Origin: Nitrosopumilaceae archaeon
Lineage (GTDB): Archaea > Thermoproteota > Nitrososphaeria > Nitrososphaerales > Nitrosopumilaceae
Length of the DNA stretch: 10,493 bases
NCBI GenBank assembly: GCA_050749225.1
Contig: JBOGQR010000051.1
Location: forward strand, 1 to 10,493
Direction: 5' to 3'
In this document: piece by piece, positions 1 through 10,493 of the stretch
Numbering within the stretch: the first letter of the stretch is position 1
Layout: the number at the start of each line of letters is the position of its first letter
The notes under the pieces: model-generated
The model's database searches: none
Told to the model about the DNA's origin: nothing
The model's input: only the letters and a program-made list of their open reading frames with translations
Translations under genes and position numbers: made by a program

Positions 1-849
1 GATCTACTAGTATCAAACAAGGCGACTGAAAAAATAGTAAAGAATTTTCTTGCCCTGTACAGGGAAGGCAAGGCAACTAACAGGTTTCAGAAAAAACGTT
101 CCAAGGACATCAGAATTGTAACTTATTACATCGCTCAATCTGTTCGAGATTTTTGTGGATATCATGGAATGATGTGGAAGCGTGGAGTGACTGGCGTTAT
201 GTCACAAAAAATCCTAAGCCATGGAAAATATGCTGACAAGAGATTAACTGATGAAGAGATGGAAAGAGCAGACCAGTTCATTAAATCAAAATGGGGTCTT
301 GATTCTGATGTGTATAGATGGTTCTGGATTGGGATAGAAAGCTGTGCGAGGTTTTCTGCTCTACATAACATGAGCCTTGAATATACAAAGCATGTTAGCA
401 AAAAGACTGGCAAGGTAACCTACATCATGACAGCATATGAGACCAAAACAAAACACATCAAGGGTGGCAAGTGGATAAAATACATTACGAGACCTGACAC
501 ACAAAAATCAATAGATCTTCTAAAGACAAGAGGTGGGACAAGAATCTATGAATCAAAAGAAGCTGATTTTCCTTTTACTCAAATGATTTCAAAAAGCATG
601 AAAGAAGTCTATTCGTTTTTGGGTAAAACAGAATATTTTGAAAACCATCCTACACATGCATTAAGACATATCGGGGCTCATTACTGGCTGGCAAGAAAAA
701 ACTACAACTATGGACTTGTTGCCTTGATTGGAGGATGGATTACGATTGATGAACTGAGGAAAAGTTATGGTGAAATGCCGCCTGAAAAAGTACTTGAGAT
801 AATAGAAGAAAATGATAACAGACTTGAGATTAGTCCACTTTTACATTAG
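1..849 (+). CDS. Tyrosine recombinase / phage-type integrase, 5'-truncated by the window edge
   Basis: Frame 1 has no stop from base 1 to the TAG at 847-849, so the ORF-track ATG at 169 is internal and the gene enters from the left. Catalytic-domain motifs read directly: 'IESCARFSAL' (box I Arg), 'HALRHIGAHYWL' (H-x-x-R), 'GGWITIDELRKSYGE' (W/H position plus catalytic Tyr). Confidence 0.8.
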   Translation, partial: DLLVSNKATEKIVKNFLALYREGKATNRFQKKRSKDIRIVTYYIAQSVRDFCGYHGMMWKRGVTGVMSQKILSHGKYADKRLTDEEMERADQFIKSKWGLDSDVYRWFWIGIESCARFSALHNMSLEYTKHVSKKTGKVTYIMTAYETKTKHIKGGKWIKYITRPDTQKSIDLLKTRGGTRIYESKEADFPFTQMISKSMKEVYSFLGKTEYFENHPTHALRHIGAHYWLARKNYNYGLVALIGGWITIDELRKSYGEMPPEKVLEIIEENDNRLEISPLLH

Positions 850-876
850 TTTGGATCCTATGGGGTCCAGCTACCT

Positions 877-904
877 CGTGGTCTTATATTAGACCTATTT
901 TCTT
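877..904 (+). terminator. Hairpin (ggtct-tatatt-agacc) followed by T-rich run tattttctt, just downstream of the integrase stop
   Basis: 5-bp stem 880-884/891-895 with a 6-nt loop, then a T-rich tract at 896-904. Archaeal termination commonly uses oligo-T. The stem-loop resembles the hairpins at 8433 and 10103. Confidence 0.25.
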
Positions 905-919
905 CGTAAACCAATATTT

Positions 920-972
920 TACATGATTTTTACGATCGTGATTCGCAATTTAACAGATACATGATTTCGATC
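920..972. repeat. Direct repeat 'tacatgattt(tta)cgatc' x2 in the integrase-proximal spacer
   Basis: 920-937 'tacatgattttTAcgatc' and 958-972 'tacatgatttcgatc' are identical except for a 3-nt insertion. The copies start 38 nt apart. Function unknown. Confidence 0.5.
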
Positions 973-1023
973 CATTTTAAGTTTGATGTTGTAAATCTAC
1001 ATGCAAATTAATCTCTCTATTTC

Positions 1024-4000
1024 TTATTTTATCATTCCATTTGCATACAGGTACTTGACAGCATTCACAAATTCCTGTTCTGTCATTTCATCATTTACAA
1101 CCCACTTGGTTGTCTTCATCATCCAAGATGGTATGTGATTAGCTTTAATTCCAAGTTTTGATAATAGTTCAGAATCTGAAATAGAAGTTGGAGTATAACC
1201 TCCCCATTCTTTTATTACAGTTATCAAATCTGTTTGGTTTGAAGCAGTGGATTGCGGTAGTATTGCAGGCTGTATTTGGATAACTGAGTTATTATCATTC
1301 ATATTTGATCCTACAACCTGCCACGCATTTGATATGTATGTATCCGCAGAATACAAGTCGGATCCCCATGTTCTAACTATGATATCAGATGTTGGCATTG
1401 GATTTGCAAATGTTATATCAACATCAAGCTCAAACTTGCCGTCACTTGTTTGTGTCGGATTGGCAGAGGCAGAACCAAAGAAGTTGTGCGGATCAACTAT
1501 TGACAGTTGCGAGTTTCTATCCCATGTTATCATAGTATCGCTGTCTCCGATGTTTCTTTTGTTCCCATACAGATCAGTGAAGAGTGTTACATGTTGAACA
1601 GATGACGGTCCACTGTCCCCATAAAGGAAAATTTTCAGAACAATCGACTTGCCTGTATGAATCACTTGTGTCTGTACTGGACTATTTTGATAACTGTCAA
1701 GATTAATGCCTGTTCCATTAATTACCAACGGATATCGGTTTGGTGCAAATCCTACTGTAAAGGAAGGTGCAAAGCCAGGTGTCTTGTCACCTTTACTTGT
1801 TGATGGTACAAACAAACCTCCCGGATCAGATATGATACCATTTGCCAGACCATCAGCATCTCCCAAGCCGCCATCTGTTATGCTTATCGTCATAGTATTG
1901 CCGCTTATTCCAGTAATTAGTGAAGAGAGGTTAGTCCAAGTTCCTGTCGAGAATTTCCAATATTGAGCATTTGAAGGAATTGTAGAAGGGAAGCTAAAAG
2001 TTATTGGTACTTTCTGTCCTATGACAAGACCTGTAATCTTCCAAGAAAACAGTCCGTATGGGAATTTTCCTGATGGAATATCTGAGGTTGCAAGGTTTGA
2101 GGTAGATATCGCACTAAGATCAGATATTGAATTTGGTGCAGAGATTCCAACAATGCCAGCATCATTTGATGCAGGTATCAACATTGGGGTTAGCACTGAT
2201 GATGATCCACCATTACTGCTACTAGGACCACTGTATACAATATTTGTATCCACAATAATTCTAATTACTTGAGTAAGTGATGGGTTTTCTTCCACGTATA
2301 CCTGTTCAAAGAGATGTCCTTCATTTGTTACCTCAAAGACAAGATTCCAGTTGTATGATGTAATATCACATGTTTTGTTAAAAGACACCCCCATAGATAC
2401 CCCACTTACAATAGTGTAATTGTATCCACTAACTTTTGATTCAAATTCAGATGAATTCTGGGCAAGCAGTATTGCTTTGGTCTGATTAAACAAAGATGAG
2501 AGTTGTCTGGTTTGCATTTCTAATTTATGCATACAATCTAAGAGGTCAAATGGAGTTGTGGAATTTACAGCGTTTGAGAAATATACTGTGGAATTGGTAT
2601 AATTTTTCAAGAAGAATGTGGAACCGGTGGAATTTGAGAACGATAATTTGGAATTGCTAAAGTTTGAAAGTGATAATGTAGAATTACTAAAGCCTGAAAA
2701 AGACAGAACCGCATTATCAAAATTTGAAAAAGACGGAGACGAATTGCTAAAACCAGAAAGAGACAGTAGTGAGTTACTAAAACTTGAATTTCCGACTATA
2801 AATGGCAACACAAGAGATGGAGAGAGTTGAATGGGATTATCAATAGATTTTATTATATAAATTTGAGCAATATATCCTCCGCTGGTAACAAGTGTCAATG
2901 ATTGTGCTGGATCAAGGGACTGGTGAGGTGTAAGGGTTCCTGAAATCCAAGAAGCATCTATCACATTCCCATTCTTGTCCAGAATATTAACAAGATATGT
3001 AAATGGCTGATTACTATTCTCACGATTTGTGATTTGGGCTGTTATTTGGATTTGTTGATTTGGATAGATTGATGTCAATGTGTTGCCAAGAGAATCTACC
3101 AATCTTGGATATCTAGAGTCCACAGTGCTTGGTGTAGAAGAATTTGTAGTCGTATTTGAAGTAGCATTATAGTTGAATGATAAATTGTTTTGTAGTGTTC
3201 CACCATATTCTACCATGATAGTATAATTTCCCGTTACTCTAAAAAGTGGGCCACCGGCTTTGATGACTGTAGAGAATGTACCATTACTTGTAACATTTGC
3301 TTGCACAATTTGAACAAAATTATGATTTGGATCAAGAATCAATAGTATTGCTGTTCCACCTTGGATAGGTGTATTCACAATACCAGAGAGAGAAACTGGC
3401 GTAATATTATAACTAATAGATCCTCCGCCCTCAACTACTATCGTTGTCGCAAGTGGTTGAGAAAGTGGCAATGGATTATCGATACTTTGTAAGACAAAGA
3501 TTTCAGCAGTGTATGTACCAGACGTATGAGGTGTCCATGATTGTGCTGGAGTGAGTGTCTGATTGGCAGTCAATGTACCAGTAATCCAAGACAGTGATAC
3601 TGTTACTCCATTTTGATCTTGGATTTGCACTAGATATGCAAATGGCTGATCCCTATTCTGATTGTTAGTCAAGTCAGCAGCGATTTGCATCTGCTGTCCT
3701 GCAATAACTGGACTTGTAATTGTATTACCAAACGAGTCAACGATTCTTGGGTCAGATGCCGATACTCTTTCAGGCGGAGGGACAATACCGACTAATGTTG
3801 TAGATGTCAATCTTAACTGATAAGCTGGTGTGTATGGAGCGGGCAGTGTTCTATCTTGGTATTCACCAGTGACTGTGTCACCTTCTGCTACGTGTAATCT
3901 GTTACCTGAAGACTGGAAGTTCGTTGTAAAGTACACTGTACCTTGGAAGATTCCAGTGTTTGATCCAGTTTCAGTCATGTTGAATTTGATACCGCCAGAA

Positions 4001-5370
4001 TCAGAGTCAGACCAAGTATTTGTGTAAAACCTGTCTATTGCATTTGGATTGAGGTTCATGTCTGGATCTACTATTTGTAATACTCCTTGACCGTTAGACG
4101 GATAGCTTGATTCTAACCAAGTTACATTACCGACATTCCAATGAATTGGTGCGAAAGCAACAACCGTTTGGTTTAGAGTTTGAAACGATACAGATATTCC
4201 ATCACTGTCTTGTGATGGAAGTAATCCATCATTTGGTCCAATTCCTGATGGTCCTGTACCTGTTGGCTCTGTACCTTGACCATCAATACCTCCTACACCC
4301 TTGATCAGCGGATTACCTGTTAGAGTGACATAACCGGTGAAGTTACCTGTATTGGGTCCTGTCTCTATTAACTTGTATTGTGATATGGTGTGACCTCTTG
4401 TCGATATTGTTATTTTGCTTGTTGTGGTGTTGCCAATTATATCGATTTTGGTTGGATCAAGATTTTGATCTGGTGCGATTACAGTTATGTTAACCCGGTT
4501 AGTCCACGTGTATGATGTTTTGTCTAGTTCAACTATATTTTGTATAGGCAGTACTTGGGCATTATTAATTACATAAGTTGTTGCATTAAGTCTTAATTGA
4601 TCAGCTTGTGCATGTAGTGCAGGTAACGTTCTGTCGGTGTATTCTCCAATAATCGTGTTATTTCCTGAGGATATATGCAATCTGTTACCTGATGAAGTAT
4701 CATTGGTAAAGTCGACCGTGCCTTGAAAGATTCCTGTATTTGATCCAGTTTCAGTCATCGGTATTAAGACACCTGCAAAATCAGAGTTTGACCAAACTGG
4801 AGTAAAGAACGAATTTGTAGCATTTGGATTGAGATGCATATCTGGATCGATTATCTGTAACACCTTACTGCTTGGTGTATGATCTGAAGGTAACCAAGTT
4901 ACCTGACCAACATTCCATCTGATCATTGCTAGTGAACCAGTTGCATTATGGTCTTGAGTTTGAAATAAAACCGATATACCATCACTATCTTCTGCTGGCA
5001 ATAATCCATCTGTTGGACCGATTCCAGATGGTCCAAGACCACTTGGATTAGTACCATTTCCATCAACACCGACAGGACCTTTTAGGGTTGGATCACCAGT
5101 AAGGGTAACATAACCAGTGAAGATTCCAGTATTTGGTCCTGTCTCCACTAACGCATAAGGTGAAATGGTATTACCTCGGTCAGATATTGTTATTTTGTTT
5201 GTGTCGTTATTGCCGATTGTTTCGATTTTGTTTGAATCAAGATTTTGATCTGGTGCGGTTACAGTAATTTTGACTATGTCAGTCCATGTGTATGGCGACT
5301 TGTCTAGCTCAACTATAGGTGTGATAGCTGCAGCATTATATGTTGAAAATGATGCGATACAGACCAACAC
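1024..5370 (-). CDS. Very large secreted cell-surface protein (adhesin / S-layer-like), multi-domain beta-sandwich repeats, probably heavily N-glycosylated
   Basis: Uninterrupted 1448-codon ORF. N-terminal hydrophobic signal '...IFILSLLAVLVCIASFSTYNAAA|ITP' (extends upstream of the GTG at 5370, see findings). Two 260-aa tandem modules carry recurrent 'ETG(P/S)NTG(I/N)F(T/Q)G' and 'DPD(M/Q)NL(N/D)P' motifs. Duplicated ~110-aa domain ('QPFAYLVQIQDQNGVTVSLSWITGTL' / 'QPFTYLVNILDKNGNVIDASWISGTL'). FSNS low-complexity tract. Domain ending 'TISITDGGLGDADGLANGIISDPGG'. C-terminal 'IPSWMMKTTKWVVNDEMTEQEFVNAVKYLYANGMIK'. Many N-x-S/T sequons throughout. Confidence 0.9.
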   Translation of the reverse strand: MLVCIASFSTYNAAAITPIVELDKSPYTWTDIVKITVTAPDQNLDSNKIETIGNNDTNKITISDRGNTISPYALVETGPNTGIFTGYVTLTGDPTLKGPVGVDGNGTNPSGLGPSGIGPTDGLLPAEDSDGISVLFQTQDHNATGSLAMIRWNVGQVTWLPSDHTPSSKVLQIIDPDMHLNPNATNSFFTPVWSNSDFAGVLIPMTETGSNTGIFQGTVDFTNDTSSGNRLHISSGNNTIIGEYTDRTLPALHAQADQLRLNATTYVINNAQVLPIQNIVELDKTSYTWTNRVNITVIAPDQNLDPTKIDIIGNTTTSKITISTRGHTISQYKLIETGPNTGNFTGYVTLTGNPLIKGVGGIDGQGTEPTGTGPSGIGPNDGLLPSQDSDGISVSFQTLNQTVVAFAPIHWNVGNVTWLESSYPSNGQGVLQIVDPDMNLNPNAIDRFYTNTWSDSDSGGIKFNMTETGSNTGIFQGTVYFTTNFQSSGNRLHVAEGDTVTGEYQDRTLPAPYTPAYQLRLTSTTLVGIVPPPERVSASDPRIVDSFGNTITSPVIAGQQMQIAADLTNNQNRDQPFAYLVQIQDQNGVTVSLSWITGTLTANQTLTPAQSWTPHTSGTYTAEIFVLQSIDNPLPLSQPLATTIVVEGGGSISYNITPVSLSGIVNTPIQGGTAILLILDPNHNFVQIVQANVTSNGTFSTVIKAGGPLFRVTGNYTIMVEYGGTLQNNLSFNYNATSNTTTNSSTPSTVDSRYPRLVDSLGNTLTSIYPNQQIQITAQITNRENSNQPFTYLVNILDKNGNVIDASWISGTLTPHQSLDPAQSLTLVTSGGYIAQIYIIKSIDNPIQLSPSLVLPFIVGNSSFSNSLLSLSGFSNSSPSFSNFDNAVLSFSGFSNSTLSLSNFSNSKLSFSNSTGSTFFLKNYTNSTVYFSNAVNSTTPFDLLDCMHKLEMQTRQLSSLFNQTKAILLAQNSSEFESKVSGYNYTIVSGVSMGVSFNKTCDITSYNWNLVFEVTNEGHLFEQVYVEENPSLTQVIRIIVDTNIVYSGPSSSNGGSSSVLTPMLIPASNDAGIVGISAPNSISDLSAISTSNLATSDIPSGKFPYGLFSWKITGLVIGQKVPITFSFPSTIPSNAQYWKFSTGTWTNLSSLITGISGNTMTISITDGGLGDADGLANGIISDPGGLFVPSTSKGDKTPGFAPSFTVGFAPNRYPLVINGTGINLDSYQNSPVQTQVIHTGKSIVLKIFLYGDSGPSSVQHVTLFTDLYGNKRNIGDSDTMITWDRNSQLSIVDPHNFFGSASANPTQTSDGKFELDVDITFANPMPTSDIIVRTWGSDLYSADTYISNAWQVVGSNMNDNNSVIQIQPAILPQSTASNQTDLITVIKEWGGYTPTSISDSELLSKLGIKANHIPSWMMKTTKWVVNDEMTEQEFVNAVKYLYANGMIK
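2548..2790 (-). repeat. Imperfect ~30-nt coding tandem repeat encoding an S/N/F-rich tract (FSNSxLSLSx units)
   Basis: aa 861-941: 'NSSFSNSLLSLSGFSNSSPSFSNFDNAVLSFSGFSNSTLSLSNFSNSKLSFSNSTGSTFFLKNYTNSTVYFSNAVNSTTPF'. Repeated DNA units such as 'gaattgctaaa' / 'gaattactaaa' / 'gagttactaaa'. Dense N-S-S/T sequons. Confidence 0.7.
3787..5325 (-). repeat. Tandem in-frame duplication, period exactly 780 nt (260 aa), two copies inside the large CDS
   Basis: Copy 1 is aa 16-275 (4546..5325) and copy 2 is aa 276-528 (3787..4545). The 'VELDK' Val codons lie at 5313 and 4533, exactly 780 nt apart. Long near-identical DNA stretches, e.g. 'tttgatccagtttcagtcat' in both 4739-4758 and 3959-3978, and 'caagattttgatctggtgcg' near 4458 and 5238. 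Confidence 0.85.
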
Positions 5371-5403
5371 AGCAAGTAATGAAAGAATGAAAATTTTGTT
5401 TAT

Positions 5404-5423
5404 GTTTTCAACCTCTATATAAT
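5404..5423 (-). promoter_or_regulatory. Candidate TATA-like box (minus-strand 'attatata') and SD-like GAGGT upstream of the large gene
   Basis: The minus strand reads '...ttaatattatatagaGAGGTtgaaaacATAaacaaaatt'. GAGGT (5415..5411) lies 7 nt upstream of an in-frame ATA (5403..5401). The A/T-rich box is at 5416..5423. No experimental support. Confidence 0.3.
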
Positions 5424-5616
5424 ATTAACAAGTTGTATAAAAGATAATAATTAAAAAAGTTAGATTCATTCATAATTTTAGAATCAATTTGTGTTAGACC
5501 CTCTTACAGGTTTGAACTCTATTCGTCTATAAATTAACAGCAAACGAGTTTATCGACAAAGAGTAAAAATGGTTTACCCCCTTTTACACACAAAGATATG
5601 CTGTTGTCGTAAAACC

Positions 5617-6618
5617 TTACTTAGAGAATTTATCAGAGGATCTATTGAGTTGTGGGAACCGGTCAACGGCTGTAGCAGATTCGCCTCCTCCAATTATGTT
5701 TCCCGTCTTTGAATCAACAAAATATGTAAAAGAAAATATTTTCCAATTTCCAGACGTAATCCAAACAAATTGTTTAATTTTTTCCGGTTGTAAATATTTT
5801 TGATTATAATGATTTATTACTATTGTTTGATTAAATTTGATAGCATTATGGTTTTCATCTAAAGTATAAAGCAGAAAATGTGGAATATTGTCTGTGGTTG
5901 TGAGATATCTTAAAAATCCCAGAATTGCTCTAGTATCATAATGGTTTGTATCATTTCTAAATTTAATTACCCCATCAGAAGCTTGCTCTTCGGATACGAA
6001 TTGGTTCATTGATAAATTCCAATTACGTTCTACAAGACGTTGTGCTGTTTCCTGACTTACACAAGCAGGAAATTCCTTCTCAGATTTTATTATAATGATA
6101 AAACTCTCTTTACATTGAATATCTTTAGCAGAAATTCCAGATTTGAATTGTTTTAATGGTAATGACATTGGTGGCTTTTCTACCGCAAGACATTCTTTTC
6201 CCTTCTCATAAGGGTCTGGGTGTACATCAAGTACCAATCCATATTCAATTTCAATTTCTTGAGTGTGACCCATCGGTACATCAAAGTGTAAAATTCTTCC
6301 ATTGTCAGTAAACTGTTCATAATAATTAGTTGGCGTCTCTCCATCCAAGAATACAACTGAATGATCTGGTTTACAATTAGAATCTGCAACATACCATACT
6401 TTCTTTGGTATGTTTAGAGTAATAGAGCCATCTTTGTCCATAGAAAAATTGACAATTATCACAGGCAAGTTACCTTCGATGTGAATCCTGTCAATAGTAC
6501 CTCCTTCTATTTGGTAAGTGATTTTTGGTTCAGAATTTTTAATATCGGCAAAAACACTTGGAGATAAAATAATTACAACTATTAGTGATATTATGATTAT
6601 ACAAAACAAGTAATTCAT
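5617..6618 (-). CDS. Secreted hypothetical protein (333 aa) with beta-sandwich-like N-domain and a two-Cys 'PLKQFKSG...C...PACV...ERNW' module
   Basis: ATG start at 6618. Signal peptide 'MNYLFCIIIISLIVVIILSPSVFA|DIKN'. The module 'LPLKQFKSGISAKDIQCKESFIIIIKSEKEFPACVSQETAQRLVERNW' is shared with the 6960..8399 product. The N-domain 'ITYQIEGGTIDRI...GSITLNIPKKV...VVFLDGE...GRILHFDVPMGHTQEIEIEYG' is paralogous to modules in the neighbouring genes. Confidence 0.85.
   Translation of the reverse strand: MNYLFCIIIISLIVVIILSPSVFADIKNSEPKITYQIEGGTIDRIHIEGNLPVIIVNFSMDKDGSITLNIPKKVWYVADSNCKPDHSVVFLDGETPTNYYEQFTDNGRILHFDVPMGHTQEIEIEYGLVLDVHPDPYEKGKECLAVEKPPMSLPLKQFKSGISAKDIQCKESFIIIIKSEKEFPACVSQETAQRLVERNWNLSMNQFVSEEQASDGVIKFRNDTNHYDTRAILGFLRYLTTTDNIPHFLLYTLDENHNAIKFNQTIVINHYNQKYLQPEKIKQFVWITSGNWKIFSFTYFVDSKTGNIIGGGESATAVDRFPQLNRSSDKFSK
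6107..6150. repeat. Perfect 44-nt inverted copy of 7470..7513 (inside the two-Cys module of two paralogues)
   Basis: The reverse complement of 6107..6150 is 'caattcaaatctggaatttctgctaaagatattcaatgtaaaga', which equals 7470..7513 exactly. Flanking codons are diverged. Confidence 0.9.
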
Positions 6619-6638
6619 ACGAGATTGTAATTTTGATC

Positions 6639-6645
6639 ATATTTA
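6639..6645 (-). promoter_or_regulatory. Candidate TATA box (minus-strand 'taaatat') for 5617..6618
   Basis: It starts 27 nt upstream of the ATG at 6618, which is consistent with a leaderless or near-leaderless archaeal transcript. Sequence-only call. Confidence 0.3.
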
Positions 6646-6698
6646 CGGATTCCAACAAATCATAACCTTCAGGTTCAGACCTGTAAGAATCCGTACTG

Positions 6699-6761
6699 CA
6701 ATTTATCAGTAATCTCTAATAGCAATGTTATTTCATAACAAACACGAAAAGACTACATCTT
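6699..6761. repeat. Left arm of a 63-nt inverted repeat covering the TATA-like box, a conserved ATG and the first ~12 codons of the + strand gene
   Basis: 'caatttatcagtaatctctaatagcaATGttatttcataacaaacacgaaaagactacatctt' against the reverse complement of 9916..9978: 57/63 identical, with a perfect 29-nt core (6703..6731 = rc 9946..9974). Weaker similarity continues upstream (ctgtaagaatcc 6681-6692 vs ctgtaggatcc, rc of 9989-9999). Confidence 0.9.
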
Positions 6762-6959
6762 TCAATAATTATAATTCTCAGTGGAATTCTTGTTATTACA
6801 AACAATCTGGCATTTGCCGATAATACGAATCAACACGTAATTATTGATGGAACTATTTCTCAAGAAGGCTGTAATGTCATAAATGGTACTATAACACAGG
6901 CAACTGACATACAAAACACAACAATCCAGTTATGTAATTATCATGACAAACACTTCAAA

Positions 6960-8399
6960 TTGTCTGCAACAACCGGTTGTATCTTAGTCGGTGTTGGGAA
7001 TACAAAAGATCCTGAAACAGGACACAAGTATGCATTTAATGTCATATGTGATGTACCAACTACATGTGGTCTAAAAAACTCATGGGGTGATCACAACATG
7101 GGTAATACGGATTATCTTGATGCAACATCAGTTAATGGAACTCATTTCATTATTACCACAAATTATGGATGGGGTGTGTGTGCATCAGAATCATACAATG
7201 AACAAGAAAAAAAAGCAACTATAATTGTAAACGGTTTGTGGGATAATGATACAGTTGTTAATGTACTAATTCCAAAAGTGCTTCTTGGAAATACATTGGT
7301 AACAGTGGATGAGAAGAAAATAACTCCTGATATCATCGATCATCACCCTTCTAATACCACTCTAGTTTGTCCATTGTGCTATTATGAGATGAATATGCAT
7401 CTGCCTTTTTCATCTGCATCTAAAAAAATTGAGATTGGAGCCCAATCCATTCCTGATACTCCGCTAAAGCAATTCAAATCTGGAATTTCTGCTAAAGATA
7501 TTCAATGTAAAGAAGGTCTTGTATTGATAACTAAAACATCAGACAATTTTCCAGCTTGTGTGAAAACACAAACAGCACAGAAGCTTGTTGAACGTGAATG
7601 GGGTTCTATGGTAATTCCCAATGGTTTATTCTATAATGGTACAGGAAGGTCTACTAAAGGAACAATGGTAGTGGATAACACAAACTACACTGTAAACTAT
7701 AGAATTACGAATGCTACGATTCTAAATGTTAAGGAGGATGTGCAAGATAAAGGTCTGATGGTCTCGATAAAGGCAGATGACATGGGGGTGTTAACAATAA
7801 CTATTCCAAGATTATTATTTAATTTTGATATTTCAGATGCACAATGGCAGAGTTGGCATATCCCTGGTCACTACTGGGCAACGAACGATGGCACACGCAA
7901 CGAACAATTCCAAGAGATTAACACTACCTCAACCGACAGAACTTTTTTTATCCACTTTTCAAAGGGAACTAAAGAAATGGAAATTTTTAGACCACTGCCG
8001 CTCATATGTTTGTCTGGTAATACTATGATTGACACCCCAAATGGTGCTACGAACATAAAGGAATTAAAAGTTGGAATGCGTGTGTGGACATTAGACGATC
8101 ATGGTTACAAACAGTCGGCAGTAATTTTGAAGACACAGAAAACCCAAGTACCTTCAATGCACACTATGGTTCACATTGTTTTAGTTGATGACAGAGAAGT
8201 ATTTGCATCCGCCAAACATCCAACAGCAGATGGCAGATTAGTAGAAGTATTGAAAATTGGAGATATTCTTGATAATACAAAAATTAAAACCATTGAACTT
8301 ATTTCGTACAATGAAAACTATACTTATGACATTTTGCCATCTGGTCCAACAGGATTCTATTGGGCTAATGGCATTCTAATTGGAAGCACCCTAAAGTAA
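6960..8399 (+). CDS. Secreted Cys-rich protein with two beta-sandwich-like modules, a two-Cys PLKQ...PACV module and a C-terminal Hint domain (coordinates use the first canonical start, TTG 6960; the true start is probably upstream)
   Basis: The frame is open from 6723. Between 6723 and 6960 it encodes a textbook signal peptide, 'NTKRLHLSIIIILSGILVITNNLAFA|DNTNQ', but has no in-frame ATG/GTG/TTG. The mature part contains 'TPLKQFKSGISAKDIQCKEGLVLITKTSDNFPACVKTQTAQKLVEREW', '...GVLTITIPRLLF...DRTFFIHFSKGTKEMEIF', then the Hint domain. TAA at 8397-8399. Confidence 0.85.
   Translation: MSATTGCILVGVGNTKDPETGHKYAFNVICDVPTTCGLKNSWGDHNMGNTDYLDATSVNGTHFIITTNYGWGVCASESYNEQEKKATIIVNGLWDNDTVVNVLIPKVLLGNTLVTVDEKKITPDIIDHHPSNTTLVCPLCYYEMNMHLPFSSASKKIEIGAQSIPDTPLKQFKSGISAKDIQCKEGLVLITKTSDNFPACVKTQTAQKLVEREWGSMVIPNGLFYNGTGRSTKGTMVVDNTNYTVNYRITNATILNVKEDVQDKGLMVSIKADDMGVLTITIPRLLFNFDISDAQWQSWHIPGHYWATNDGTRNEQFQEINTTSTDRTFFIHFSKGTKEMEIFRPLPLICLSGNTMIDTPNGATNIKELKVGMRVWTLDDHGYKQSAVILKTQKTQVPSMHTMVHIVLVDDREVFASAKHPTADGRLVEVLKIGDILDNTKIKTIELISYNENYTYDILPSGPTGFYWANGILIGSTLK
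7470..7513. repeat. Partner of the perfect 44-nt inverted repeat (6107..6150)
   Basis: Base-by-base comparison. Encodes 'QFKSGISAKDIQCK' in both genes. Confidence 0.9.
8007..8396 (+). other. Hint (Hedgehog/intein-like, BIL-type) autoprocessing domain, 130 aa, at the extreme C-terminus
   Basis: Block-A-like 'CLSGNTMIDTPNGATNIKELKVGMRVWTLD' with Cys1 at 8007-8009. Block-B-like 'FASAKHP' ((T/S)-x-x-H). C-terminal strands 'YTYDILPSGPTGFYWANGILIGSTLK' followed by the stop. No His-Asn and no +1 nucleophile or extein. Confidence 0.75.
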
Positions 8400-8432
8400 T
8401 AATGAAAATTATAATGAATTTGGAGAGAAGTG

Positions 8433-8457
8433 CGTAGTCTTGTATAGGACTACGAAG
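8433..8457. repeat. Conserved hairpin 'cgtagtct-tgtata-ggactacg-aag' between the convergent gene ends (possible bidirectional terminator element)
   Basis: 8-bp stem (7 Watson-Crick pairs plus one G.U) with a 6-nt loop. Near-identical element at 10103..10127. A related stem-loop lies at 877..895. Confidence 0.45.
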
Positions 8458-8493
8458 ATTCCTGTTATCCAGCTGACGGATCTATAGACCCAT

Positions 8494-8502
8494 AAATAAA
8501 AT
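8494..8502 (-). terminator. Oligo-T tract (minus-strand 'attttattt') just after the stop of 8518..9915
   Basis: T-rich run 16-24 nt downstream of the TAG (8520..8518) on the minus strand, resembling an archaeal oligo-T termination signal. Sequence-only call. Confidence 0.25.
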
Positions 8503-8517
8503 CAAACCATCAAATAT

Positions 8518-9915
8518 CTAACTAACATGAATTACATGACTAAATGTATTACCGCCATCTGTACTTATCCTTAGAAATATTCCATGAATATCTCCTCCAC
8601 TATCTCCTGCCAAATAGATCTTGTCACCTGACGATACTATCTGTAAATTTCTGATTCCAACATAATCTCCGTTGTCTTGATTTAGATCAATAGGAACACT
8701 GAAAGTTTGCCCGCCATCAATACTCGTTGTAAAAAATATTTGTTTATGAAAGACTGGTGTTGTTGAGCTCTGTTCCCAAATAGCATACAGTTCATTTTCA
8801 GATAATATTCCTACAGGAGAAAATGGAAGAGCCTCCTTAATGTATTGAGTAATATTGATTGTTTTATCAAAGGTGCTTCCACCATCAATGCTTTTTCTCA
8901 ACACAATTTGCTCACCATTGGAATCATCACTGTTCCACTTTACGTAAACGCCATTTTGTCCATATGCAAGAAGTTGAGAAAACCATGTGCTTGCAGTTCC
9001 ATTATTCAATTTTGTCATCTTATCAAAAGTGAGTCCTCCATCTATGCTTCTTGTAAAAAACAGATCATTTCTGGTCTTGTTAGCTCCTTCAACAAGAACA
9101 TACACTTTATTACCTGATGCTGCAATTGATGCGTCTGATAGATAGATGCTACCGGTCAAATTTAGTACGCTGCTAAAGGTTTGACCATTGTCTGAACTTT
9201 TCCTAAAAAGTACACCAGTATACATGCCTTGGCTGATTTCCTTGCCTAGTCCAAGCGTGTAAATATTTTTGCCAGAAATTGCAAGTTTTAGAAAATTCCG
9301 ATCAGAGTATGGCTCTCCATACAGGTCAACAGTTTTTCCAAACGAATTACCGTTATCAAAGCTTGACCTGAGGATAATGCCATTATTAATTGGATAACCG
9401 TTACTGTCTTTGTTTGCATTATACAATATAGCGTGCAAATCATTCTCATTGAGAAATATCGAGGTACCAGCTGAAATCCCATCACCATCCTTTAGTAGAG
9501 TGACATTGCCAAAGGTAATTCCGCCGTCAATACTTTTTCTGATAAAAGTGTGTCCACCTCCAAAATCATCCCATGTCAAGTATAATGTATTATTTTTTGC
9601 AACTATTGCTGGGTGATAGATAACATCATAACCACGAGTCAGATTAATTATTCTGTTAAAAGAGAATCCGTTATCAGTACTTGTTCTGAGCAGAACAGAA
9701 TTATTTTTAGATGTTGAATTTTCTTGTTGCCATAACACATACACATGGTTTCCAGACACTGCCACTTGAGTGATAAAAGCTGTCGTTGAAGGAGGCTTAG
9801 ATATCCCCCCAATAGGTAAATGTTCCTGTTGAAACGGCAATATTGGTTGTGCAGATTGTGAAAATACAATAAAAAATATTATCGTTAAAGCAACTCCAAT
9901 CGGAAGCGCGATCAA
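8518..9915 (-). CDS. Secreted or membrane-anchored BNR/Asp-box repeat beta-propeller protein (sialidase-fold-like, function unknown)
   Basis: Eight S-x-D-x-G-x-(T/S)-F Asp-boxes: STDNGFSF, SIDGGITF, SFDNGNSF, SSDNGQTF, SIDGGLTF, SIDGGSTF, SIDGGQTF, STDGGNTF. They are spaced ~45-60 aa apart, each preceded by a 'G(N/K)xVYVxW'-type strand. N-terminal hydrophobic segment 'IALPIGVALTIIFFIVFSQSA|QP'. The start shown is TTG 9915; the frame is open up to 9954. Confidence 0.9.
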   Translation of the reverse strand: MIALPIGVALTIIFFIVFSQSAQPILPFQQEHLPIGGISKPPSTTAFITQVAVSGNHVYVLWQQENSTSKNNSVLLRTSTDNGFSFNRIINLTRGYDVIYHPAIVAKNNTLYLTWDDFGGGHTFIRKSIDGGITFGNVTLLKDGDGISAGTSIFLNENDLHAILYNANKDSNGYPINNGIILRSSFDNGNSFGKTVDLYGEPYSDRNFLKLAISGKNIYTLGLGKEISQGMYTGVLFRKSSDNGQTFSSVLNLTGSIYLSDASIAASGNKVYVLVEGANKTRNDLFFTRSIDGGLTFDKMTKLNNGTASTWFSQLLAYGQNGVYVKWNSDDSNGEQIVLRKSIDGGSTFDKTINITQYIKEALPFSPVGILSENELYAIWEQSSTTPVFHKQIFFTTSIDGGQTFSVPIDLNQDNGDYVGIRNLQIVSSGDKIYLAGDSGGDIHGIFLRISTDGGNTFSHVIHVS

Positions 9916-9978
9916 AAGATGTAGAGTTTTCGTGTTTATTATGCGATAACATTGCTATTAGAGATTACTGATAATTTG
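9916..9978. repeat. Right arm of the 63-nt inverted repeat (5' region of the minus-strand BNR gene)
   Basis: The reverse complement reads 'caaattatcagtaatctctaatagcaATGttatcgcataataaacacgaaaactctacatctt'. Similarity to the left arm ends exactly where the two hydrophobic signal-peptide cores begin. Confidence 0.9.
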
Positions 9979-10102
9979 GTGTTATGCTGGATCCTACAGA
10001 ATCCATCCATCTTGATTAGCTTGACACCGTTGATGACTATCTTAATTTTAGTTCAATATCTTCCTAAATTCAACAATCCCACAGAAAGACTCTATGGTCT
10101 TA

Positions 10103-10127
10103 CGTAGTCTCTATACAGATTACGAAG
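10103..10127. repeat. Second copy of the conserved hairpin 'cgtagtct-ctatac-agattacg-aag'
   Basis: Same 8-nt left arm, same 6-nt loop length and the same 'tacgaag' 3' end as 8433..8457. The stem keeps pairing through a G.U-compatible change. An adjacent small hairpin 'agac-tctatg-gtct' lies at 10087..10100. Confidence 0.45.
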
Positions 10128-10244
10128 TGTTTTGTAATGTTTGAAAATACATTCAATCACTAAAGTTTGGTTCTAAAGATTCGAGTCTTGTAATCTTTGA
10201 CCAAATTAGGTTTACAAAACTAATTTGTTCTTCCCAAATCTTTT

Positions 10245-10251
10245 TTTATTA
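10245..10251 (+). promoter_or_regulatory. Candidate TATA box 'tttatta' for the right-edge gene
   Basis: It starts 24 nt upstream of the ATG at 10269 and is preceded by a T7 run. Sequence-only call. Confidence 0.3.
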
Positions 10252-10268
10252 AGAAAACAATTACTGTT

Positions 10269-10493
10269 ATGTACGAAAAAATTAGCCATTCTTTAATGAA
10301 GATGGTGTTCGGTATGGTTATTGCATTAATTCTTATTCTTAATCTAATGTACCCTGCAAAGGTTCTTGCAGATAATAACATGACAGAATGGAATGTACAA
10401 CATGTTATTGGTAAATTTCTAAATTCAAATCCAGCAAAACCAGATCAGATATTCAATTTCCAGTACAGAGTACTTAATGGCACACTTGAAACT
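10269..10493 (+). CDS. Secreted hypothetical protein, 3'-truncated by the window edge; paralogue of the 5617 and 6960 gene products
   Basis: ATG at 10269, with 75 codons open to the window end (absent from the ORF track because there is no stop). Signal peptide 'MYEKISHSLMKMVFGMVIALILILNLMYPAKVLA|DNN'. The mature N-terminus 'IFNFQYRVLNGTLET' matches the start of the module 'YTVNYRITNATILN' / 'ITYQIEGGTIDR' in the neighbours. Confidence 0.7.
   Translation, partial: MYEKISHSLMKMVFGMVIALILILNLMYPAKVLADNNMTEWNVQHVIGKFLNSNPAKPDQIFNFQYRVLNGTLET

Follow-up and report, generated by a model that had tools for sequence, protein, structure and literature searches.

An inverted repeat in a Nitrosotalea-like archaeon as two probable copies of a recurrent promoter and signal-peptide module

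Conserved 5' ends are found on paralogous surface-protein genes in the "upstream homology box" of the Borrelia erp and mlp loci and in Mycoplasma lipoprotein families, where near-identical promoter and signal-peptide regions, many per genome, precede unrelated or divergent secreted proteins. In the inversion systems represented by Mycoplasma pulmonis vsa/HvsR, the Rci shufflons and the invertible promoters of Bacteroides, either there is a single expression site or the promoter lies between the repeats, so that inversion reconnects promoter and gene. The window analyzed here is the whole 10,493-nt contig of a Nitrosopumilaceae (Nitrosotalea-like) metagenome-assembled genome (MAG; P0155; 36% GC), in which an inverted repeat precedes two convergent genes, one for a Hint-domain protein and one for a BNR/Asp-box protein. 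The original prediction took this repeat for a candidate invertible expression switch. We consider it probable that its arms are paralogs and represent a 5' gene module common among the Nitrosotalea-like archaea that oxidise ammonia in soil. The module would consist of a conserved archaeal promoter motif, ATTTRTMAGYAATCYCTAAAA, whose CTCTAAAA part resembles a TATA box, of a 22- to 26-nt spacer up to the translation start, which is the spacing expected for leaderless or nearly leaderless thaumarchaeal mRNAs, and of the opening codons of a signal peptide, (M)KTLHL(S/L)I, whose nucleotide sequence is itself conserved. The module precedes the genes of many secreted or surface proteins that are unrelated to one another, and would likely provide shared transcriptional control together with an export signal.

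The inverted copies and their 29-nt perfect core, TTATCAGTAATCTCTAATAGCAATGTTAT (6703 to 6731 on the plus strand and 9946 to 9974 on the minus strand), were recovered as predicted, although the repeat finder gave arms of 64 nt, instead of 63 nt, with 91% complementarity (Table 1). The core occurs exactly twice, once per strand, against 0.00 occurrences expected from 200 shuffles, and the repeat is therefore real and not a product of chance. Alignment of the 5' regions confirmed that identity collapses to background directly past ...CTACATCTTT, at the onset of both hydrophobic cores, and revealed a weak likeness reaching about 20 nt further upstream of both arms, which resembles a ...GAATC...CA junction found upstream of other copies of the module. 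The six mismatches between the arms all fall in their more arm-specific half. Downstream, a WING-49 protein with a C-terminal Hint domain and a BNR/sialidase-type propeller are indeed unrelated, and their genes lie tail to tail, with stops at 8399 and 8518; the pair is inverted only because these two genes converge.

The promoter half of the module recurs throughout the lineage. A scan for ATTTATCAGCAATCTCTAAAA allowing at most four mismatches identified 27 distinct thaumarchaeal copies in other MAGs and metagenomes, and many further diverged copies were found in the fetched loci by a profile search with the upstream half, for which the profile was built from the two window arms, a groundwater MAG locus (L035) and the locus L074. 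In 23 copies the motif is separated from the start codon by 22 to 26 nt. Where the spacer measures 22 nt, the start is GTG in 11 copies and ACG in L074 and in both window copies, and where it measures 23 to 26 nt, the start is ATG. The 21 open reading frames (ORFs) downstream of the motif fall into 8 unrelated protein families, and in tandem arrays the motif lies immediately behind the stop codon of a preceding gene with a PEFG-CTERM-like tail or overlaps this codon. The motif thus precedes unlinked genes at a fixed distance from their starts, as a shared promoter would. Furthermore, the copy in another Nitrosopumilaceae MAG, in a different context (L019), reads CAATTTATCAGTAATCTCTAAAAGCAATG and shares 28 of the 29 bases of the window's perfect core, so that selection on the motif accounts for this core without any need for recent conversion.

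GeneMarkS-2 assigned leaderless transcription to 11 of 11 Thaumarchaeota, with a promoter box about 26 nt from the gene starts (PMC6028130), and on account of this distance we infer that CTCTAAAA is the TATA box and that the mRNAs are leaderless or nearly so; ATTTATCA could alternatively be the TATA box, giving a leader of about 13 nt. The module resembles the archaeal promoters of leaderless genes (GeneMarkS-2 "group D," which includes Thaumarchaeota), composed of a B recognition element (BRE) and a TATA box, in that the TATA-like CTCTAAAA follows a purine-rich AGCAAT, lies at the distance from the start given above, and is found either on first genes or immediately behind the stop codon of the gene before. 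However, different from these promoters, the conserved block extends over 21 nt, much longer than BRE plus TATA, a length that suggests an added operator or regulator site; moreover, it prefers non-ATG starts (GTG in 11 copies and ACG in 4), and it is associated with a specific signal-peptide sequence.

The possibility that the leader forms a conserved RNA hairpin was considered and discarded, the complementarity between ATTTATCAG and CTGAAAAT seen in the GTG subfamily being absent from the window copies. An Rfam scan of the window at E<=1 returned a single chance snoRNA-like match (6088 to 6148) and none in the arms. We could also notice a second lineage-wide promoter class, GAAnnCTACGCCAnTTTTTTAAAC, located about 26 to 28 nt upstream of the ATG or TTG starts of MKTLHL signal-peptide genes (L016, L027, L155, L151 and many others); the upstream flank of the window arms, GAATCCGTACTGCAATTTATCAG, appears to be a divergent version of it.

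In each arm, the last ~20 nt encode the first residues of the conserved signal peptide. Homologs of the Hint protein begin with MKTLHLSIIIIL (P0007) or MKTPYYFIIVIV (P0003), and the contig DNA of the former, ATG AAA ACT CTA CAT CTT TCA ATA ATT ATA ATT CT, nearly reproduces the nucleotides of the window arms, with ATG replacing ACG. The scan pattern AYGAAAANNCTACATCTTTYRAT, which admits only AYG at the start position, matched 85 loci in species-representative genomes and 113 in metagenomes. About 75 of the 85 genome loci belong to some 25 Nitrosotalea/Thaumarchaeota genomes, often with several per genome (at least 17 in REEA26), and the remaining ~10 are chance matches in unrelated bacteria. 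A hydrophobic signal or transmembrane stretch follows the motif, and CTA encodes Leu4 in about 70% of the unbiased bystander copies versus 16% in background usage, which indicates codon conservation beyond the amino acid requirement. With about 200 copies, the MKTLHLSII N terminus therefore behaves as a signal-peptide family whose codons are conserved in excess of codon bias.

Like the Borrelia and Mycoplasma families, the module places nearly the same promoter and signal-peptide 5' end on proteins that are otherwise unrelated. It differs from them in being archaeal, with an archaeal promoter, and in showing no sign of plasmid location or antigenic variation.

The likeness to the inversion systems lies in a short conserved 5' sequence arranged as an inverted pair, with tyrosine recombinases nearby, and an invertible expression switch, in which a site-specific recombinase, such as one of the flanking tyrosine recombinases, would recombine the arms, flip the 3.2-kb segment and change which gene is expressed, has the same features in its favor: a genuine inverted repeat, perfectly matched over a core of 29 nt, flanks both genes, and two tyrosine recombinases are encoded on the same contig. 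We nevertheless regard this switch as highly improbable. Each arm holds the complete promoter motif and start region, so that a flip would exchange only the sequence upstream of position -45 and leave equivalent promoters, with no ON/OFF logic; the inversion systems named above, by contrast, reconnect one promoter. The same module stands at dozens of unlinked sites, and all 14 of the other loci with two copies of the coding motif carry them on the same strand, from which it follows that the inverted pair is not a conserved design. The arms also lack the architecture of a recombinase core site, namely, short inverted binding arms around a spacer. Moreover, a single orientation was observed in three assemblies: nucleotides 21 to 10493 of the window are identical, in the same orientation, to a 13,440-nt contig of GCA_975323085.1 (L001), and a Logan contig (L007, from SRR27067716) covers 7484 to 10137 without mismatch, crossing the right arm and a further 160 nt, again in the same orientation. 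No orthologous locus was found in public data; the locus of P0003, a homolog of the N-terminal domain, is nonsyntenic, and the contigs bearing recombinase homologs hold different cargo.

The tyrosine recombinase that had been predicted about 5.9 kb to the left is recognizable by its fold only. The ORF in question (1 to 849) gave no sequence match in Pfam, NCBIfam, PHROG or the PDB (phmmer), whereas the top 23 Foldseek PDB matches of its AlphaFold model (predicted local distance difference test, pLDDT, 81) are all Flp, Cre or the Tn1549 integrase. Comparison with 27 homologs showed that R117, K149, H219, W246 and Y256 are invariant and that R222 is at least 90% conserved, and these residues may be assigned to the catalytic roles R-K-H-R-(H/W)-Y; fold and residues together are those of a tyrosine recombinase. 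The family comprises more than 200 homologs across Nitrosopumilaceae. Homologs with 88% and 78% identity stand at contig starts, with methylases, DndB or a large DEAD-box helicase behind them, i.e., defence islands. Since close homologs adjoin entirely different cargo, the protein is probably an island integrase with variable cargo and not a local invertase, and in this respect the locus departs from the inversion systems. A second, XerA-like integrase lies beyond the right end of the window (L001, 41 to 1489); BLASTP detected no similarity between the two, and no tRNA gene that might serve as an att-type target was found when the full contig was scanned. It may be added that proteins of the first family, which is also represented in L207 and L208, measure about 405 to 420 amino acids, are annotated only as "HTH domain protein" after their helix-turn-helix (HTH) domain, with the fold missed by Pfam, NCBIfam and PHROGs, and in relatives sit at the edges of variable islands with defence genes, the contigs tending to break just upstream of them.

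Some points weigh against the interpretation of the arms as copies of a recurrent promoter module. The exact 20-mer of the core, CAGTAATCTCTAATAGCAAT, had no match in the genome, metagenome and viral collections, and recurrence thus rests on diverged copies; the query was too strict, given that the L019 copy differs by one base. Two TATA-like elements are present, ATTTATCA and CTCTAAWA, either of which could be the one used, and the function of the motif as a promoter or operator, the transcription start site and the co-regulation of the genes are deduced from the nucleotide sequence. Assemblies report the majority orientation, and a minor inverted subpopulation might exist beside it. Finally, the closest spacers are those of the two window copies themselves, for which reason local duplication or transfer of the 5' module must also have occurred.

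This last point bears on the origin of the pair. The two arms agree at 19 of 22 spacer positions and share a subtype, GCAATGTTATyyCATAAyAAAC followed by ACG, that occurs in no other copy, apart from a partial likeness in L035 (TTTCATAWCAAA(A)AC ACG). The arms might accordingly be the outcome of a recent local event, either gene conversion or transfer of a 5' end, with their identity reflecting recency and not function, and the BNR protein, whose best match shares 34% identity and which has no close ortholog, could have acquired its 5' end in this way. As an explanation of the identity we find this possible but rather unlikely. The perfect core is also the part conserved elsewhere, as the L019 copy illustrates, and purifying selection explains it, while the confinement of all six mismatches to the more arm-specific half argues against a very recent copy. 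Such an event, furthermore, concerns where the pair came from and complements the recurrent module without replacing it. The pair is best seen as a duplication or transfer of the module within the lineage, by which the BNR gene may have obtained its 5' end.

The start codons of the two genes require separate consideration. The original prediction had credited each arm with an ATG and about 12 codons, which does not hold. The shared ATG (6725 to 6727 on the plus strand, mirrored at 9950 to 9952 on the minus strand) is displaced by +1 from the frame of both long ORFs and belongs to a semi-conserved spacer word, represented in other copies by GCAATG, GCATTG, GTAATG and ACACTG. In the frame of the ORFs, a TAG interrupts both arms upstream (6720 and 9957) and is followed by CAA TGT TAT (TTC/CGC) ATA (ACA/ATA) AAC ACG AAA ... 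and then by the signal peptides. Of each ORF, only about 6 codons fall within the arm. Use of the ATG at 6725 as the true start through a +1 frameshift or slippage was rejected: the ATG is not conserved elsewhere (GCATTG, ACACTG), the longest A run is 4 nt, and the ORFs in the ATG frame (32 and 50 codons) are not conserved.

In both window genes, whose ORFs are intact, the codon at the position of the start is ACG (Table 1); the homologs carry ATG or GTG at precisely this position. Near-cognate ACG, AUA and AUU starts are known from non-AUG or relocated initiation, and ACG is edited to AUG in plant organelles. Two other thaumarchaeal ACG genes differ from the window genes in this regard, as they are explained by in-frame canonical starts four codons upstream, ATG ATG in L074 and GTG in L105. 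For the right gene of the window and for L035 no canonical start exists upstream, and the first ones downstream are the TTG at 9915, six codons on, and an ATG seven codons on, respectively; the left gene has no in-frame ATG, GTG or TTG until the TTG at 6960, past its signal peptide. In these three genes, which lack a canonical start ahead of the ACG, the in-frame codon three positions before it is ATA, ATA or ATC. The two window copies and L035 belong to a subtype of the module in which the start position is occupied by ACG and no canonical start precedes it. Since no canonical start precedes its signal peptide, the left gene must either be initiated at a noncanonical codon (the ACG, or the in-frame ATA three codons upstream) or be untranslated. 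An enrichment of ACG as an alternative start is not demonstrable, given that the 222 sites of the coding-half scan (214 with ATG and 8 with ACG) come from a pattern restricted to AYG, which biases the counts, and that L074 and L105 have the canonical starts just mentioned.

In haloarchaea, leaderless translation is strongly AUG dependent, with GUG 5 to 37 times weaker (PMC4574771), and a promoter class tied to GTG or ACG is therefore expected to give weak translation. The same dependence agrees with the idea that a change of ATG to ACG has turned one gene or both into start-codon pseudogenes and that the module copies are decaying relics without current function, as do the missing canonical start of the left gene and the ATA-preceded copy in L038, which has decayed and contains early stops. 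We consider decay unlikely, because the ORFs run uninterrupted for 551 and 471 codons in a genome of 36% GC, because the ACG subtype is common to two diverged window copies and to an intact 376-codon gene in L035, and because the 72 codons upstream of the annotated TTG of the left gene are kept at the protein level in the homologs P0002 and P0003. It is possible to hypothesize, tentatively and with less confidence than for the module itself, that a subset of Nitrosotalea-like secreted-protein genes combines a dedicated conserved promoter/operator, leaderless or nearly leaderless mRNAs and deliberately weak or noncanonical starts (mostly GTG, with ACG or AUA in the window genes and L035) in a lineage-specific low-translation "secretome cassette," whose conserved 5' ends would also allow gene bodies to be exchanged by recombination.

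The deposited gene models (P0001 and P0035, of 479 and 465 amino acids) are N-terminally truncated, and both start too far downstream because the true start region contains no ATG, GTG or TTG. The model of the Hint gene, beginning at TTG 6960, drops the 72 conserved codons and with them the whole signal peptide, and that of the BNR gene, beginning at TTG 9915, drops 6 codons, including the charged n-region.

Table 1. Positions of the module copies and of other features in the window
Feature	Position	Strand	Remark
C-terminal 282 amino acids of an HTH + tyrosine-recombinase-fold protein	1..849	+	Probable genomic-island integrase, not locus specific
Left arm (module copy 1)	6699..6762	+	Promoter motif, spacer, start position and first ~6 signal-peptide codons of the WING-49/Hint gene
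Promoter motif ATTTATCAGTAATCTCTAATA, left arm	6701..6721	+	Lineage-wide; family consensus as given in the text
TATA-like CTCTAATAG box	6714..6722	+	Overlaps the left-arm motif
ACG, left copy	6744..6746	+	Paralogs have ATG, GTG or TTG here; 22 nt past the promoter motif
Secreted WING-49 + C-terminal Hint-domain protein	6744..8399	+	Domain searches, ORF
Predicted signal peptide of the Hint gene, TKRLHLSIIIILSGILVITNNLAFA	6744..6818	+	
REP-like palindrome CGTAGTC-N8-GACTACG	8433..8454	.	Between the two convergent stops; does not belong to the repeat
Secreted BNR/Asp-box (sialidase-family) propeller protein	8518..9933	-	Signal peptide 9933-9850
Right arm (module copy 2)	9915..9978	-	Precedes the BNR/sialidase-like gene
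ACG, right copy	9931..9933	-	Homologous position
Promoter motif AATTATCAGTAATCTCTAATA, right arm	9956..9976	-	Scan with <=4 mismatches
REP-like palindrome, second copy	10103..10124	.	~125 nt upstream of the right arm

Regarding the protein encoded by the left gene, its C-terminal Hint domain (7980 to 8399) starts at the conserved Cys of ...CLSGNTMIDTPNG and ends with ...GILIGSTLK. Many secreted thaumarchaeal proteins that differ in their other parts have this domain at their end (P0004 to P0023, 56 to 71% identical there), a distribution that suggests an autoprocessing or attachment chemistry at the C terminus. A further inverted repeat of 137 nt with 75% identity (6019 to 6155 on the minus strand and 7465 to 7601 on the plus strand) corresponds to the WING-49 domain (PLKQFKSGISAKDIQCKE...PACV...TAQKLVER) shared between the Hint gene and a divergent 333-amino-acid gene, and is a case of protein-domain paralogy and not a DNA element.

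The palindromes listed in Table 1, which resemble repetitive extragenic palindromic (REP) sequences, belong to a family of about 28 nt, CTTCGTAGTC-yyTATAyr-GACTACGAAG, with 10-bp arms and an 8-nt center, and these arms and spacer also resemble a tyrosine-recombinase core site. Members occur outside the window at L001 2280 to 2301 and in L035 (3 sites), L075 (4 sites), L067, L105, L123, L183, L193 and L198, in intergenic regions of all kinds, convergent, divergent and tandem; the Logan contig L007 ends 14 nt past the second window copy. The 125-nt divergent intergenic region contains, immediately before the left arm, a compound palindrome, TACGGATTC...AACCTTCAGGTT...GAATCCGTA (6644 to 6695), that may be a regulator-binding site, and the equivalent place of the right arm (9986 to 10003) is occupied by a shorter palindrome, GGATTCTGTAGGATCC. 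The window also encodes, at 1024 to 5370 on the minus strand, a 1,448-amino-acid secreted protein with a choice-of-anchor U domain and weak similarity to an anammox S-layer glycoprotein; its gene contains two internal direct repeats of 780 nt (3926 to 4468 and 4706 to 5248; ~74% identical), and 30-nt tandem repeats at 2621 to 2788 lie in the Ser/Asn/Phe-rich region of the protein.

In limited full-text literature searches we did not find the module and its non-ATG starts described, and both appear to be undescribed so far; to our knowledge, no non-AUG initiation mechanism of this sort has been experimentally shown in Thaumarchaeota. The comparison presented here removes a false lead, as the inverted repeat is no evidence for phase variation in an ammonia-oxidising archaeon. 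On the other side of the balance, as a simpler alternative, the original prediction had named a shared cis-regulatory and leader module, and had listed, among the findings that would speak against a switch, the same 5' module on many unlinked genes in relatives; this is what the relatives display, and the module is supported by its recurrence, spacing and cargo, co-regulation itself being presumed. With the module it becomes possible to catalogue the presumably co-regulated secretome of Nitrosotalea-like archaea and to mend gene starts, and the tie of its promoter to GTG or ACG, and not to ATG, may bear on translation initiation of short-leader archaeal mRNAs. If it is true that ACG or AUA initiates here, this would be a natural case of noncanonical initiation in Thaumarchaeota.

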